Shown: piece by piece, positions 27,886-35,341 of the stretch | How the letters are laid out: each line of letters opens with the position of its first letter | Numbering within the stretch: position 1 is the first letter of the stretch | Virus record (IMG/VR): IMGVR_UViG_2721755728_000002 | Source of the DNA: a virus | Taxonomy: Duplodnaviria > Heunggongvirae > Uroviricota > Caudoviricetes | Reading direction: 5' to 3' (one strand) | Length of the DNA: 55,396 nucleotides | The notes under the pieces: model-generated | Database searches by the model: none | What the model saw: only the letters and a program-made list of their open reading frames with translations | What the model was told of the DNA's origin: nothing | Made by a program: the position numbers and the translations under genes

Positions 27886-27948
27886 CCCTGCTCACCCTGT
27901 AACCATCATGAACCGCTGCGGCGGTTTTTTTATTTTCAGGAGGCTGAT

Positions 27949-29886
27949 GTGACTCTTAAACGGGCCTGTTCCCTGCTGACGGTGAAATCCTTCAGTGAGG
28001 ATGAACGGGTGATCACCGGGATTGCGTCAACGCCTTCTCCGGATCGGGATGGTGACATCCTGGAGCCGGAGGGGGCGGAGTTTGGCAGTACGATCCCGTT
28101 TCTCTGGCAGCATGACCATTCCCGCCCTGTAGGCCAGTGTACGGTGCGTCGGGTCAGGGAAGGGCTGGAAATCACGGCAAGGCTGGTGAAGCCGGAGCCG
28201 GGGATGCCCTCCCAGATGGCAGCCCGGCTGGATGAGGCCTGGGCTGCCATTAAGACCGGGCTGGTCAGGGGGCTTTCTGTGGGCTTCCGGCCCCATGAAT
28301 ACACTTATCTGGACGGAGGCGGACTGCATTTTCTGCGCTGGGAGCTGATGGAGGTGTCTGCCGTCACCGTGCCCGCGAATGCGGAATGCACCATCCGGAC
28401 CATTAAATATTTCGACCGCCCGTTTTCTGCCGCGTCCGGCAACCGGAAACCGGTGGTGAAAATCGCATCTTCTGCCGGCGCTTCGGCACAGTCAATAACC
28501 TCTTTTCATAAGGAAAAGTCAGCAATGAATACTGGTGAACAGATTAAAAGTTTTGAAAACAAGCGTGCGGCGCTGGCAGCCTCCCTTGAGGAGATCATGA
28601 ACAAAGCCGCAGAGGAAGGCCGCACACTGGATGTGGAAGAGGAAGAGCACTACGACAACACCGCAGCGGAAATCCGTCAGGTGGATGCGCACCTGAAGCG
28701 TCTGCGTGAACTGGAAACCAGTAAGGCCGCCACGGCACAGCCGGTGAAACAGGCCGGTAACGGGAATGTGGCCACGGTGGCTTCAGCGCCGGTGATCCGT
28801 GTTGAGCAGAAACTGGAGAAGGGGATTGGTTTCGCCCGCTTTGCCAAATCACTGGCCGCGGCTAAAGGTGTCCGCTCTGAAGCCCTGGAAGTGGCCCGTC
28901 GTCAGTATCCGGATGACAGCCGTCTGCATCATGTCCTGAAATCGGCGGTGGGGGCAGGGACCACCACGGACCCGCAGTGGGCAGGCAGCCTGTCTGAATA
29001 CCAGGAATATGCGCAGGACTTTATTGATTACCTGCGTCCGCAGACCATTATCGGGCGATTTGGTCAGGGCGGGATCCCTGCACTTCGTCAGGTGCCGTTC
29101 AATATCCGCGTGCATGCCCAGGTGTCCGGTGGTGCTGCCGGCTGGGTGGGTGAGGGTAAGGCCAGACCCCTGACGAAGTTTGATTTTGAATCCATCACCT
29201 TCAGTCATGCGAAAGTGTCGGCCATTGCGGTACTGACGGAAGAATTGATCCGTTTTTCCAGTCCGGCTGCTGATGCACTGGTCCGTAATGCGCTGGCGGA
29301 AGCGGTGGTGGCGCGTCTGGACACAGACTTTGTGGACCCGAAAAAAGCGGCGGTGGCGGATGTCTCCCCGGCGTCCATCACCCATGATGTGAAGGGCACG
29401 GCATCAACCGGTAACCCGGATGCGGATGCCGAGGCCGCGTTTGGCCAGTTTGTGACGGCAAATCTGCAGCCCACCGGTGCGGTCTGGCTGATGTCCAGCA
29501 CGAATGCCCTGGCGCTGTCCATGCGTAAAAATGCGCTGGGGCAGAAGGAATATCCGGACATGACCTTGCTGGGCGGGACCTTCCAGGGGCTGCCGGTGAT
29601 TGTCTCCCAGTATGTGGGTGACCAGCTGGTACTGGTGAATGCACCGGATATTTATCTGGCTGATGACGGCGGTGTGGCGGTGGATATGTCCCGTGAAGCG
29701 TCACTGGAGATGCAGTCTGAACCGACCAGCGACAGCAGCACACCGTCACCGGTGGAACTGGTCTCCATGTTTCAGACCGGCAGCGTGGCCATCCGTGCGG
29801 AGCGCTGGATCAACTGGCGTCGTCGCCGTACCGCGGCAGTGGCGGTGATCACCGGTGTGAACTACGGAACTGCGTCCGGTGGCTGA
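27949..29886 (+). CDS. Prohead protease fused to major capsid protein (HK97 type)
   Basis: 645 aa; N-terminal ~180 aa protease-like, central coiled-coil segment, C-terminal ~340 aa capsid-like. Confidence 0.7.
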   Translation: MTLKRACSLLTVKSFSEDERVITGIASTPSPDRDGDILEPEGAEFGSTIPFLWQHDHSRPVGQCTVRRVREGLEITARLVKPEPGMPSQMAARLDEAWAAIKTGLVRGLSVGFRPHEYTYLDGGGLHFLRWELMEVSAVTVPANAECTIRTIKYFDRPFSAASGNRKPVVKIASSAGASAQSITSFHKEKSAMNTGEQIKSFENKRAALAASLEEIMNKAAEEGRTLDVEEEEHYDNTAAEIRQVDAHLKRLRELETSKAATAQPVKQAGNGNVATVASAPVIRVEQKLEKGIGFARFAKSLAAAKGVRSEALEVARRQYPDDSRLHHVLKSAVGAGTTTDPQWAGSLSEYQEYAQDFIDYLRPQTIIGRFGQGGIPALRQVPFNIRVHAQVSGGAAGWVGEGKARPLTKFDFESITFSHAKVSAIAVLTEELIRFSSPAADALVRNALAEAVVARLDTDFVDPKKAAVADVSPASITHDVKGTASTGNPDADAEAAFGQFVTANLQPTGAVWLMSSTNALALSMRKNALGQKEYPDMTLLGGTFQGLPVIVSQYVGDQLVLVNAPDIYLADDGGVAVDMSREASLEMQSEPTSDSSTPSPVELVSMFQTGSVAIRAERWINWRRRRTAAVAVITGVNYGTASGG

Positions 29887-29930
29887 GTCTGATGAGGAGG
29901 GCGGGAGGCGCGAGCTTCCCGTAACAGGTT

Positions 29931-30152
29931 ATGGCAAAGATCCGATATCTGCAGGGCACGCATGATGCCCGGGCCGGGGATATCCGTGATGTGGCACAGC
30001 CGTGTGCGGAGGTGCTGGTTCGCCTGGGGAAGGCGGAGTACATCACAGCGCGACGTCCGGCAGGTCAGAAAAAGAAACGTGATGCGGAGCATGGCGAATG
30101 TGGAACCTTTTGCGGCGAACCCGAAAAAACCAGAAATCAGGACGTGACGTAA
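29931..30152 (+). CDS. Possible small ORF between capsid and portal genes
   Basis: 73 aa ORF; weak RBS. Confidence 0.2.
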   Translation: MAKIRYLQGTHDARAGDIRDVAQPCAEVLVRLGKAEYITARRPAGQKKKRDAEHGECGTFCGEPEKTRNQDVT

Positions 30153-31462
30153 GAGAAGTGGGCTGGCGGTCCCTGTTTCAGGCGGTGGCTGAGCCTTTTG
30201 CCGGTGCCTGGCAGCAGGGTGTGAAAGCCGATCCGGAAACCGTTTTGTCCTTTCACGCGGTGTTTTCATGCATTTCGCTGATATCCCAGGATATTGCCAA
30301 AATGCGGCTTCGCCTGATGCAGACTGATGTACAGGGAATACGCCGGGAAAAGCGGCAGGGAGATACTGCCCGTCTCTGTCGTCGTCCTAATGCGCAGCAG
30401 AATCGCATCCAGTTTTTTGAACTGTGGCTGAATTCCAAATTGCGTCACGGCAATACGGTGGTGCTGAAAATCCGCAACCCCCGGGGGCAGATCAAAGAAC
30501 TGCGTATTCTGGACTGGAACCGGGTTGAACCTCTGGTGGCGGATGACGGCGACGTGTTCTACCGCATCACGCCGGACCGGAACTGTGGGATCACAGAGTC
30601 GGTGACGGTGCCTGCCCGGGAGGTGATCCACGACCGTTTTAACTGTTTTTTTCATCCGCTTGTGGGGCTGCCGCCGGTGTATGCCGCAGGACTGGCCGCC
30701 ATGCAGGGGCATCATATTCAGGCAAATTCGACGTATTTTTTCAGAAATGGCGGGCGACCATCAGGCGTGATTGAGGTCCCCGGCAGTATTACGGAAGAAA
30801 ACGCGAAAAAACTGAAGGGGAACTGGGACAGCGGATATACGGGCGAAAATGCCGGGAAGACGGCCATACTGAGCAACGGGGCAAAATACAGCCCCACGAC
30901 GTTTTCACCGGTGGATGCGCAGACGGTGGAACAACTGAAAATGACGGCTGAAATTGTCTGTTCGGTGTTCCGTGTCCCGGCCTACAAGATTGGCGTTGGC
31001 CACCCGCCTTCCAGTGACAACGTGGAGGCGCTGGAGCAGCAGTATTATTCCCAGTGTCTGCAGACGCTGATTGAGTCCATTGAGCTGTTACTGGATGAGG
31101 CGCTGGAAACGGGGGAAAACGAGAGCACGGAGTTTGACGTCACCACGCTGCTGAGAATGGACAGCGAACGGCGCATGAAAACACTGGGTGAATCGGTGAA
31201 AAATACGCTTCTCACGCCCAATGAGGCCCGTAAACGTGAGAACCTGCCGCCCCTTGCCGGCGGTGATGCACTGTATCTTCAGCAGCAGAACTACAGTCTG
31301 GAGGCGCTGTCCCGTCGTGATGCCCGTGAGGACCCGTTCGCGTCGGCCGGGAAAACAGTTTCAGCACAACTGCCTGACGGCGCATCTGACGGTAATAAGG
31401 CAATCAGTGAAACAGAGCATGATGCAGTGAAAGCGATGTTCAGGGGGATACTGAGAAAATGA
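30098..31462 (+). CDS. Portal protein (HK97 family)
   Basis: Portal-like sequence (FFRNGGRPSGVIEV..., LKGNWDSGYTGENAGKTAIL..., FRVPAYKIGVG); alternative GTG start at 30158. Confidence 0.75.
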   Translation: MWNLLRRTRKNQKSGRDVREVGWRSLFQAVAEPFAGAWQQGVKADPETVLSFHAVFSCISLISQDIAKMRLRLMQTDVQGIRREKRQGDTARLCRRPNAQQNRIQFFELWLNSKLRHGNTVVLKIRNPRGQIKELRILDWNRVEPLVADDGDVFYRITPDRNCGITESVTVPAREVIHDRFNCFFHPLVGLPPVYAAGLAAMQGHHIQANSTYFFRNGGRPSGVIEVPGSITEENAKKLKGNWDSGYTGENAGKTAILSNGAKYSPTTFSPVDAQTVEQLKMTAEIVCSVFRVPAYKIGVGHPPSSDNVEALEQQYYSQCLQTLIESIELLLDEALETGENESTEFDVTTLLRMDSERRMKTLGESVKNTLLTPNEARKRENLPPLAGGDALYLQQQNYSLEALSRRDAREDPFASAGKTVSAQLPDGASDGNKAISETEHDAVKAMFRGILRK

Positions 31463-34609: not shown

Positions 34610-34614
34610 GGCTT

Positions 34615-34989
34615 ATGGCAAAAGATCTGAAAACACTGGCGCTGGCCAGACTGTCGGGGTTCCGTCATAAAACGGTGAAGGTGCCGGAATGGAGAAATGT
34701 CAGCGTGGTGCTGCGGGAGCCTTCGGCAGAGGCCTGGTATCTGTGGCAGGAAGTGCTCAATGGTGATGGAGAGGATGACGATACCCTGTCGGTGGTGGCG
34801 AAAACCCGCCGTAACCTGGAAGCGGATGTGACGCTGTTCTGCGATGTCCTGTGTGATACGGATCTGCAGCGGGTGTTCGCTCCGGACGACCGTGAGCAGG
34901 TGCTGGCCGTCTATGGTCCGGTACATGCCCGGTTGCTGCGTCAGGCACTGGAACTGATCGCTGATGCAGAGTCGGCCAGAAAAAAGTAG
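34615..34989 (+). CDS. Tail assembly chaperone (lambda G-like)
   Basis: 124 aa before the tape measure gene; ends at slippery A AAA AAG followed by TAG. Confidence 0.7.
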   Translation: MAKDLKTLALARLSGFRHKTVKVPEWRNVSVVLREPSAEAWYLWQEVLNGDGEDDDTLSVVAKTRRNLEADVTLFCDVLCDTDLQRVFAPDDREQVLAVYGPVHARLLRQALELIADAESARKK

Positions 34990-35294
34990 CCCGCCCGGAA
35001 ATTCGCTTTCTGATGCGACTTGCGCTCCGTCTGGGGCGCACCTTATCCGAACTGCGGCACAGCCTGAGTGTGAGCGAGGCGATGATGTGGATGGAGTTCG
35101 ACAGGGTATCCCCGCTGGGTGATGAGCGCGGGGATATCCGTAATGCACAGATCGTGAAAGCGGTTTTTGGGGCACAGGGGATGAATGTTGCACTGAAGGA
35201 CGCCATGCTCTGCTGGGGCGAGGATGAGGATAAGCCGGAGGTGGATCCGTTTGCGGCGCTGGAAGACGCGCTGAGCTTCGCAGCACAGTCATGA
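34615..35294 (+). CDS. Tail assembly chaperone fusion (GT-like) via programmed -1 frameshift
   Basis: Heptamer A AAA AAG at 34980-34986; the -1 frame continues open to 35294. Confidence 0.6.
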
Positions 35295-35341
35295 ATGATG
35301 AGAACCGCTGAGGCGGTTTTTTTACGCCCGGAGAAAGGTGA

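Follow-up and report, generated by a model that had tools for sequence, protein, structure and literature searches.

Hairpin and T-run elements before late structural genes of an EHEC-type lambdoid prophage resemble intrinsic terminators at junctions annotated in HK97

Internal terminators of late operons are already known in kind. According to PMC6606751, Q makes polymerase resistant to termination signals, and the 27-kb late transcript of lambda requires Q (bioRxiv 10.1101/2023.05.14.540688). In the HK97 record (GenBank AF069529; Juhala et al. 2000), a 'putative terminator' is annotated at 6692-6719 between gp11 and the major tail gene, another at 8398-8422 directly before the tape measure gene, and one immediately before J; these features were predicted rather than mapped as 3′ ends. 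The terminators of morons, for which HK97 gene 15 is the paradigm, are likewise embedded in the late operon and block prophage-state transcription into the late genes (PMC3594210). Other mobile elements are documented to use insulating terminators that processive antitermination overrides; the Tn916 and conAn systems follow the same concept, in which multiple internal terminators silence costly genes until an antitermination factor is made (PMC11658703, PMC8191782). For strain Sakai, Term-seq data exist (GSE143631, PMC7547250), from which only tR′ is reported.

Here, we analyzed a 55,396-nt stretch of DNA (the window; IMG/VR record IMGVR_UViG_2721755728_000002), which is an EHEC-type lambdoid (lambda-like) prophage and carries three hairpin and T-run elements, T1, T2 and T3, before late structural genes. 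The elements and the genes that follow them are, in order along the window:

27910-27932, plus strand: T1, GAACCGCTGCGGCGGTTTTTTTA; stem (G)AACCGC/GCGGTT(T), loop TGCG, seven T; hairpin about -10 kcal/mol
27949-29886, plus strand: prohead protease and capsid fusion gene (Pfam Peptidase_S78 and Phage_capsid)
33856-33876, plus strand: T3, CCCGCCGCGTGCGGG followed by TTTTTT; CCCGC-CGCGT-GCGGG, six T
33893-34609, plus strand: major tail protein gene (phrog_158, 6e-118)
35302-35324, plus strand: T2, GAACCGCTGAGGCGGTTTTTTTA; GAACCGC-TGAG-GCGGTT followed by the T-run (seven T)
35342-38584, plus strand: tape measure protein gene, so labelled in a 98%-identical annotated phage; 52% identity to the HK97 tape measure protein

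A preliminary description had reported three such elements before late structural genes, and all of them were found on the plus strand, with its coordinates off by about 1-2 nt (27909-27932 for T1, 35303-35326 for T2 and 33857-33880 for T3, against the exact positions 27910-27932, 35302-35324 and 33856-33876). Its assignment of the downstream genes to capsid, major tail and tape measure also holds on Pfam, phrog, annotated-phage and HK97 matches.

T1 lies in a 63-nt gap between the terL stop (27885) and the protease-capsid gene, which has a Shine-Dalgarno sequence at 27938-27943 and a GTG start at 27949, and T3 lies in a 66-nt gap between the stop of the tail-terminator gene (33826) and the major tail gene (Shine-Dalgarno 33883-33888, ATG 33893). 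At T2 the gap is 47 nt, the T (GT frameshift) frame stops 7 nt upstream, a GGAG Shine-Dalgarno follows at 35330-35333, and the tape-measure ATG at 35342 is 17 nt downstream. The three elements are all co-directional with the late genes, on the plus strand, outside coding sequence, and carry an uninterrupted T-tract 3′ of the stem. The stems measure 6-7 bp (T1), 6-9 bp (T2) and 5 bp (T3), so that each site has a stem of at least 5 bp with a loop of 3-8 nt, and the hairpin energies range from -7.5 to -10.3 kcal/mol; since the stems are short (about -7.5 to -10 kcal/mol), termination efficiency may be moderate. A strong RBS within about 10 nt had also been described, and indeed only 5-6 nt separate the end of the T-run from the Shine-Dalgarno sequence at T1-T3. 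At each site, the start codon follows the hairpin 3′ end by 21-22 nt, while the distance from the preceding stop to the hairpin varies (7, 24 and 29 nt). In a strict terminator scan of the plus strand across the 22-kb structural region, T1, T2 and T3 were intergenic matches, and only two weaker matches were found, inside coding sequence. A general terminator scanner applied to the window listed T1 and T3 and missed T2, because part of the T2 T-run was absorbed into the stem. None of the three matched Rfam 15 at the gathering threshold, the six matches in the window (STnc100, sok, AgvB, DicF and two tRNAs) lying elsewhere.

We then compared these sites with the described systems. T3 is orthologous to the HK97 feature between gp11 and the major tail gene and T2 to the one before the tape measure gene, both of which consist of a hairpin and a T-run. 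The major tail and tape measure genes of HK97 share 67% and 52% identity with those of the window, and HK97 also shares the CCCGC...GCGGG design. T1 is without an HK97 counterpart between terL and the capsid gene because the order of the head genes differs in HK97. Every sequence feature of a Rho-independent terminator is present at T1-T3, the same junctions are occupied in distant relatives, and HK97 is annotated at the orthologues of T3 and T2, which bears out the impression in the preliminary description of intrinsic terminators inside the late operon; with the same junctions already annotated in HK97, the observation is correct but ordinary. Lambda has hairpins of this kind at two places: AAAGGCCGC-CTGT-GCGGCTTTTTTT stands between D and the major capsid gene E, close to E, and AAACCGCC-TGCG-GGCGGTTTT stands in the I-J gap before J; the latter closely resembles T1, but both junctions differ from those of T1-T3. 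Neither a gap nor a hairpin was found at the lambda U-V and T-H junctions, and no such element at the HK022 junction between GT and the tape measure gene, so the elements are not obligatory for the tail module. The window holds further hairpins, as follows:

16427-16450, plus strand: tR′-like terminator AACCCGC-TTTAT-GCGGGTTTTTTT, 170 nt downstream of the Q-like gene
29901-29922, plus strand: 9-bp GC-rich hairpin after the capsid gene, without a T-run; GGAGG just upstream, ATG of the next gene (29931) 8 nt downstream
41119-41149, plus strand: pre-J terminator-like 10-bp hairpin, loop TCCG, then CGTTTTT, in a 245-nt gap before the J-like gene (start 41194)
44547-44577, plus strand: identical second copy of the pre-J hairpin, which arose by a 3428-nt tandem partial duplication

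The pre-J position agrees with that of the HK97 annotation before J. The post-capsid hairpin is kept as GGGCGGGG-N4-CCCCGCC in 16 relatives and has a counterpart after the major capsid gene of HK97 and HK022. The post-capsid hairpin, the pre-J pair and the tR′-like site were absent from the list in the preliminary description.

T1 and T2 match at 22 of 23 positions, the sole difference being one loop base, and the preliminary description had implied that they are one recurrent element. They might accordingly be copies of a small mobile or repeated element, or what remains of lost morons, without selected function. The 23-mer, allowing at most 3 mismatches, occurs twice in the window and was not found in 100 shuffles, and the HK97 orthologue of T2 follows moron gene 15 (HK97 record; PMC3594210). 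However, the 23-mer (with any loop base) was found in 115 IMG/VR loci, always between terL and capsid or between T and tape measure, and orthologues of each site can be followed separately through other genera, where the stem is kept. A single recurrent element is therefore not what these sites represent, and we rejected a dispersed repeat or mobile element, as no copies occurred in unrelated contexts among the 115 loci. A moron cassette was also rejected: in contrast to HK97, where gene 15 precedes the terminator, the window has just the 47-nt gap before the tape measure gene; T1, T2 and T3 have no accompanying moron gene or promoter, the 63-, 66- and 47-nt gaps being without an ORF and, in the window scan, without a nearby plus-strand promoter-like site; and gaps of 47-66 nt are too small for a moron. 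Altogether, we regard the repeat or relic reading as very improbable. Relatives that lack the moron carry the same pre-tape-measure terminator, so the HK97 'moron terminator' looks like a resident element. T1, T2 and T3 share the design [A/C]CCGC-loop-GCGG[G/T]TTTT, which we counted 40 times on the plus (late-gene) strand and once on the minus strand in 697 kb of related phages, against 0.05 expected; the plus-strand count includes the tR′-like site after the Q-like gene, and another site of this design lies at 13910, after the hok/sok region. The phage group uses one narrow design with a U6-8 tail for most of its terminators, and convergence within it is the likely cause of the near-identity of T1 and T2, to which short-patch conversion between the sites may have added.

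The conservation of the three sites was examined in relatives. T1 is conserved in 19 relatives, in which 95.8% of stem cells are paired compared with 24-55% in slid controls, with nine different loops and two stem pairs changed on both sides. All Enterobacterales relatives (capsid identity 60-77%) and a Marinobacter relative retain the hairpin and T-run between terL and capsid; a Hydrocarboniphaga relative keeps the hairpin with a weak T-run (GGGGTTTCGTCGTT), which the strict scan did not score. T3 is nearly invariant across 80 IMG/VR loci, and relatives with tail proteins that the window's protein did not detect also carry a hairpin and T-run directly ahead of the major tail gene. Orthologous hairpins are present in relatives for T2 as well, and in IMG/VR loci an allelic variant, AAACCTGC-TGTG-GCAGGTT, preserves the stem by a complementary paired insertion. 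Overall, terminator-type hairpins before capsid and tail-tube genes range from E. coli to Marinobacter and Snodgrassella, and the distant relatives with hairpins showed no recognisable Q within 8 kb upstream. In 23 relatives, the strict scan gave 63 terminator matches in 24.7 kb of intergenic sequence and 41 in 290.7 kb of ORF, an 18-fold higher density between genes. Covariation proper is limited to the two double-changed pairs at T1 and the one paired insertion at T2, and most of the support for selection comes from invariant stems and T-runs alongside freely varying loops. These patterns indicate that the structure of T1-T3 is maintained by selection at homologous positions.

The window also encodes a Q-type protein upstream of T1-T3 on the same strand:

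15707-16258, plus strand: Q-like late antiterminator gene, 184 aa (Pfam DUF1133, 4.7e-101; Phage_antitermQ PF06530, 28.6 bits against a cut-off of 26)

The arrangement is like the lambda Q/pR′/tR′ system in that a Q-family gene is followed by a promoter-proximal terminator and then by a very long late operon, which needs terminator-resistant polymerase. We take the site at 16427-16450, of the same design as T1-T3, for tR′ from its position. In contrast to tR′, T1-T3 lie 11-19 kb downstream in intergenic gaps, and the window's Q-like protein is of the DUF1133/PF06530 type. The anatomy, conservation and HK97 orthology and the presence of the Q-like gene are shown, and T1-T3 are probably ordinary Rho-independent terminators in untranslated gaps of one Q-dependent late operon, read through by Q-modified polymerase. 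Packed directly against the RBSs of the capsid, tail-tube and tape-measure genes, T1, T3 and T2 would act on any polymerase left unmodified by the Q-like protein at the late promoter: the GC hairpin would form over the U-tract and the polymerase would be released at the site, so stray late-region transcription, arising by leakage past tR′ or from moron or spurious promoters, could not reach the structural genes in the lysogen. During lytic growth, Q-modified polymerase would pass all sites. The hairpins would stay in the mRNA after read-through and may secondarily punctuate the message, either protecting 3′ ends after processing or keeping a U-rich leader unstructured before the Shine-Dalgarno sequence. 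Compared with Tn916 and conAn, the antitermination machinery and hosts are unrelated, and function was demonstrated experimentally there, whereas for the window we infer termination, Q read-through and insulation from sequence.

Alternatively, the sites may be partial attenuators in lytic growth, at each of which a fraction of Q-modified polymerase stops, lowering transcript dosage stepwise through the operon to set protein stoichiometry, by the logic of T7 T-phi. In favor of this, the tail tube and chaperone genes, whose products are needed in abundance, lie on one side of T2 and the minor tail genes H, M, L, K, I and J on the other; the protein encoded after the pre-J hairpin is a low-copy one; and in some relatives hairpins directly follow the major tail gene. 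However, T1 and T3 are downstream of the low-copy terminase and connector genes and upstream of the capsid and tail-tube genes, counter to virion stoichiometry; since both precede the two most abundant virion proteins, simple attenuation fits them poorly. Q-type modification, moreover, renders polymerase terminator-resistant (PMC6606751). Attenuation is thus quite unlikely.

Another explanation is that the selected function is a post-transcriptional one: hairpin, U-tract and Shine-Dalgarno sequence would work together as one composite for the benefit of the downstream gene, and the resemblance to a terminator would be secondary. Once RNase E has cut in the U-run, the composite could stabilise a 5′ or 3′ end; or it could be a U-rich leader that is unstructured, binds S1 and enhances independent translation initiation. 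The fixed spacings downstream of the hairpin, set against the variable stop-to-hairpin distance, favor it, as does a T6-CGTTTC-[A/T]GGAGG block 3′ of the T1 stem, which is almost invariant among relatives. In one IMG/VR locus a mosaic breakpoint falls immediately 5′ of the T3 hairpin, which therefore moves together with the gene that follows it. However, the same design occurs where no close gene start is present or termination is expected (the tR′-like site at 16427, the site at 13910, and the pre-J hairpin, 52 nt from its gene start). Furthermore, the post-capsid hairpin, where a hairpin alone is apparently needed, has no T-run, suggesting that the T-run in T1-T3 was selected as part of a terminator, and the constant spacing may simply reflect compaction because the gaps are very short. 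We therefore consider a post-transcriptional function unlikely. It is equally doubtful, in our estimate, that hairpin, U-tract and RBS are conserved as a composite module, which moves along with the downstream gene, plays a positive role after read-through in capsid, tail-tube and tape-measure expression (by segmental mRNA stabilisation or as a translation-initiation platform) and marks preferred junctions for module exchange and moron landing, with the HK97 'moron 15 terminator' being the resident pre-tape-measure terminator.

With Q-bypassed termination as the preferred reading, the main practical value is for annotation: the sites should be labelled putative terminators, as in HK97, and they mark untranslated late-operon junctions in EHEC and Stx prophages of a very common family. 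An insulating role, if true, would help to explain how costly virion genes stay silent across dozens of lambdoid prophages in one EHEC genome, although constitutive late promoters and moron promoters are present. The comparison allows a modest generalisation of possible use in planning reporter experiments, and it opens no new question.

Two further observations concern the genes around the sites. The constant 21-22 nt between hairpin and start codon, together with the position of T1 and T3 before the two most abundant virion proteins, hints at a role linked to the downstream gene. At the end of G, a slippery site precedes T2:

34980-34986, plus strand: -1 frameshift slippery site A AAA AAG

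The open T frame spans 34965-35294, and the stop codon 7 nt before T2 would therefore be reached by frameshifted ribosomes only; gp13/gp14 of HK97 are likewise annotated with a -1 frameshift (HK97 record).

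The preliminary description had claimed that recurrent, near-identical hairpins with T-runs lie just upstream of late structural genes. We found all three sequences on the + strand, 1-2 nt away from the positions first given, and the genes 3′ of them were those named there (capsid, major tail and tape measure):

27910-27932, +, T1, GAACCGC-TGCG-GCGGTT then a T-run
33856-33876, +, T3, CCCGC-CGCGT-GCGGG then six T
35302-35324, +, T2, the T1 23-mer with loop TGAG instead

T1 is followed by a prohead-protease/capsid fusion gene (Pfam Peptidase_S78 and Phage_capsid), T3 by a major tail gene (phrog_158), and T2 by a tape measure gene, so labelled in a 98%-identical phage and 52% identical to that of HK97. 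T1 and T2 share 22 of 23 positions, and when three mismatches were allowed the T1 23-mer matched exactly these two sites of the window, whereas 100 shuffles gave no match. An Rfam scan at the gathering threshold gave no match at the T1, T2 and T3 sites. The window, an EHEC-type lambdoid prophage, shares 98-99% identity across 9 kb with Stx1a-, Stx2a- and Stx2c-converting phages. Taken together, the observation is correct and non-random, and T1-T3 are further members of a well-known kind, putative terminators inside late operons.

Most late genes overlap or abut, and a stable hairpin was observed in each of the five sizeable gaps between terS and J:

Gap, length and content
terL to capsid, 63 nt, holds T1, perfect T-run
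capsid to 73-aa gene, 44 nt, 9-bp hairpin at 29901-29922, T-run absent
tail terminator to major tail, 66 nt, holds T3, perfect T-run
T to tape measure, 47 nt, holds T2, perfect T-run
I to J, 245 nt, 10-bp hairpin at 41119-41142, then CGTTTTT

At T1, T2 and T3 a space of 5-6 nt separates the end of the T-run from the Shine-Dalgarno sequence, and the 3′ end of the hairpin is 21-22 nt upstream of the start codon; the upstream stop codon lies 24 nt (T1), 29 nt (T3) or 7 nt (T2) from the element. The built-in terminator scanner misses T2 and returned 23 matches against 17.9 expected, which is not significant, so a stricter scan was written. Applied to the whole window, it gave T1, T3 and T2 as the sole intergenic + strand matches from terS to the end of J, besides two weaker matches within ORFs. 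A terminator-like hairpin, GGCATGGTGGTTACCGTGCC then TTTTT (38779-38798, -11.8 kcal/mol), lies within the M-like minor tail gene. The late lysis cassette has, between its lysozyme and Rz genes, a perfect palindromic hairpin of 13-14 bp (23103-23135); with A-runs and T-runs on its flanks, it resembles a bidirectional terminator. Sigma-70 promoter-like matches at 22000-41900 were fewer (6) than in shuffles (11.8 +/- 3.1); a single one (24393-24421) is on the late-gene strand, 5′ of the HNH and terS genes, so that T1 would be the first element met by any transcription from it.

To follow T1 among relatives, we used a protein-based scan with one genome per species, which yielded 29 loci with a capsid identity of 31-80%. 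All Enterobacterales relatives carried ACCCGC-N4-GCGGGT-T6-CGTTTC-[A/T]GGAGG between terL and capsid, with nine different loops, and three more distant gammaproteobacterial prophages kept a different GC hairpin there. In two of these three, from Marinobacter and Candidatus Pantoea communis, a T-run comes after this hairpin, and in the third, from Hydrocarboniphaga, the T-run is weak (GGGGTTTCGTCGTT); the alphaproteobacterial relatives kept no hairpin at this junction. When 20 sequences were aligned, the T1 stem with its six pairs was 95.8% paired, compared with 24-55% when the partner was slid. Double-sided changes occurred in two pairs, among them the C-G to A-U of the window itself. When RNAalifold was run on 17 longer sequences, the terminator hairpin alone was retained. 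In single-sequence folds of relatives, the purine-rich 3′ end of terL formed a long-range helix with the U-tract and some of the Shine-Dalgarno bases. This helix was rejected as unsupported, since by inspection its one variable pair is kept in only 6 of 9 sequences and RNAalifold did not retain it.

The other two elements are likewise kept. In relatives with homologous tails, the major tail gene is preceded by (A/G)ACCGCC-N4-GGCGGTTTTTTTA and the tape-measure gene by GCCCGC-loop-GCGGG(C)T6-7. Where the window's protein does not detect the tail protein, as in the Hydrocarboniphaga and Snodgrassella prophages, a hairpin with a T-run still stands immediately before the confirmed major tail gene, and in the Marinobacter prophage it lies ~95 nt upstream. 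T3 is nearly invariant within E. coli prophages, and T2 has two alleles, AACCGC/GCGGTT and AACCTGC/GCAGGTT, which differ by a complementary inserted pair. Across 23 relatives, strict terminator matches numbered 63 in 24.7 kb of intergenic DNA versus 41 in 290.7 kb of ORFs, an 18-fold higher density. At one of the IMG/VR loci compared for the spacer 5′ of the major tail gene (L147-L226 in our labelling), the upstream flank is replaced to ~10 nt before the T3 hairpin (GGCTACATACGGCGGTCAGTTTACGCTTACACCCATACCCCGCC...), which is a mosaic recombination joint adjoining the terminator.

Seven + strand features within the late operon are already annotated as putative terminators in the GenBank record of HK97:

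portal/protease junction, +
3′ of the major capsid gene, +
gp11/major tail junction, 6692-6719, +, AACCCGCC-AGAT-GGCGGGTTTT
3′ of the major tail gene, +
directly 5′ of the tape-measure gene, 8398-8422, +, ACCCGC-TATCAA-GCGGGT8
5′ of I, +
5′ of J, +

Given the protein identity between the window and HK97 (major tail 67%, tape measure 52%) and their matching start-codon contexts, T3 and T2 are, as judged from sequence, orthologues of the annotated putative terminators at 6692-6719 and 8398-8422, respectively. The HK97 element at 8398-8422 is usually attributed to the gene-15 moron. It is orthologous to the terminator of three moron-less relatives (L004, L009 and L010), in which the spacer between T and the tape-measure gene holds a terminator directly before the latter (...TTTTTTATGGGTGAAATATGGC), and thus the moron appears to have landed upstream of a resident terminator. 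In HK022 the major tail gene is preceded by a hairpin, but the 19-nt gap between GT and tape measure holds none. Lambda has neither a gap nor such a hairpin between U and V or T and H, and was therefore dropped as a model for T3 and T2, HK97 being the proper comparator; it carries a strong hairpin with seven T just before E and a AAACCGCC-TGCG-GGCGGTTTT hairpin before J. In the post-capsid region (29895-29933), GGAGG stands immediately 5′ of the 9-bp hairpin and the ATG of the 73-aa gene 8 nt 3′ of it, a layout also present in 16 relatives and, in HK97 and HK022, between MCP and gp6. Here the hairpin may bring a split Shine-Dalgarno sequence up to the start codon, reminiscent of T4 gene 38.

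An exact IMG/VR search with GAACCGCTGNGGCGGTTTTTTTA returned 115 loci, all in the terL-capsid context (loop C, once T) or the T-tape-measure context (loop A), and with these two native contexts alone in IMG/VR the idea of a repeat or mobile element was rejected. The more general design [A/C]CCGC(C)-N3-5-(G)GCGG[G/T]TTTT covers T1, T2, T3, a site at 13910 after the hok/sok region and a site at 16427-16450. In 697 kb comprising the window, its relatives, lambda, HK97 and HK022, it occurred 40 times on the late-gene strand versus once on the other (0.05 in shuffles). Since T1 belongs to one orthologous series and T2 to another, their likeness is best read from these comparisons as that of two members of one narrow terminator design, with short-patch conversion between them possible. 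The near-identity and recurrence first described are a by-product of this shared design.

The window's Q-like gene (15707-16258, +), a late antiterminator candidate, matched PF06530 above the cut-off, and 170 nt downstream of it lies the terminator AACCCGC-TTTAT-GCGGGTTTTTTT (16427-16450, +). As a candidate tR′, it implies a short late leader RNA resembling StxS/6S; a consensus promoter scan found no late promoter for this region. Q proteins make polymerase terminator-resistant (PMC6606751), and the lambda late genes form one 27-kb Q-dependent transcript (bioRxiv 10.1101/2023.05.14.540688). The best-supported reading is that T1-T3 are genuine intrinsic terminators bypassed by Q-modified polymerase: unmodified polymerase would be stopped at T1, T3 and T2, which would keep the structural genes silent in the lysogen, and Q-modified polymerase would pass all three. 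Reading them as internal terminators in a Q-dependent late operon is reasonable and agrees with existing annotation practice. In Tn916 and conjugative elements, insulating terminators are bypassed by processive antitermination, as shown by experiment (PMC11658703 and PMC8191782), whereas in the window we infer termination and Q read-through. Among distant relatives that retain the hairpins, the Marinobacter and Hydrocarboniphaga prophages were scanned with Pfam over 8 kb of upstream DNA; no Q family was detected in this short flank, and Q families are diverse. The available text of Sy et al. (2020), a Term-seq study of strain Sakai, reports tR′ alone; Tree et al. (2014) do not mention the capsid and terminase loci, and other literature searches gave conceptual parallels only.

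Simple attenuation during the lytic phase is unattractive at T1 and T3, because the most abundant proteins follow them, and plausible at T2 and at the hairpin before J. A post-transcriptional role of T1-T3 is possible, and would fit the constant distance from the ribosome-binding site as well as the mosaic junction just upstream of the T3 hairpin. As a primary role, however, it is disfavoured by the same design at the tR′-like site and other positions without a following gene start, and by the post-capsid hairpin, which lacks a T-run.

The end of the G-like chaperone gene carries a canonical -1 slippery heptamer, A AAA AAG (34980-34986), and the T frame, which T2 follows, is open at 34965-35294. 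Lambda has such a G/GT frameshift too, and so has HK97, in which it is annotated for gp13/14. The T-frame stop codon is reached solely by ribosomes slipping -1 at the heptamer. A terminating ribosome strongly suppresses a terminator a few bases past the translated gene, according to a published study (PMC4824070). As the T frame is rarely translated, such suppression would rarely apply to T2.

Several other features of the window were recorded. A perfect 2704-bp direct repeat (40459-43162 and 43887-46590, offset 3428 nt) is a partial tandem duplication that takes in the 3′ part of I, the I-J spacer and the first 2 kb of J, and may be either a genuine rearrangement or an artefact of assembly. 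ORF 41194-44376 consequently looks chimeric, with the N-terminus of J and the C-terminus of I, and is followed by a full-length J-like gene (44622-48098). We noted no stx genes in the window. Rfam matches (19043-19297, 4534-4585, 13516-13691 and 18021-18270) comprised STnc100, AgvB, DicF, sok and two tRNAs, the latter downstream of a DNA methylase gene; STnc100 (+) abuts AgvB (-) convergently. A nanS-p-like esterase gene lies at 19445-21294.
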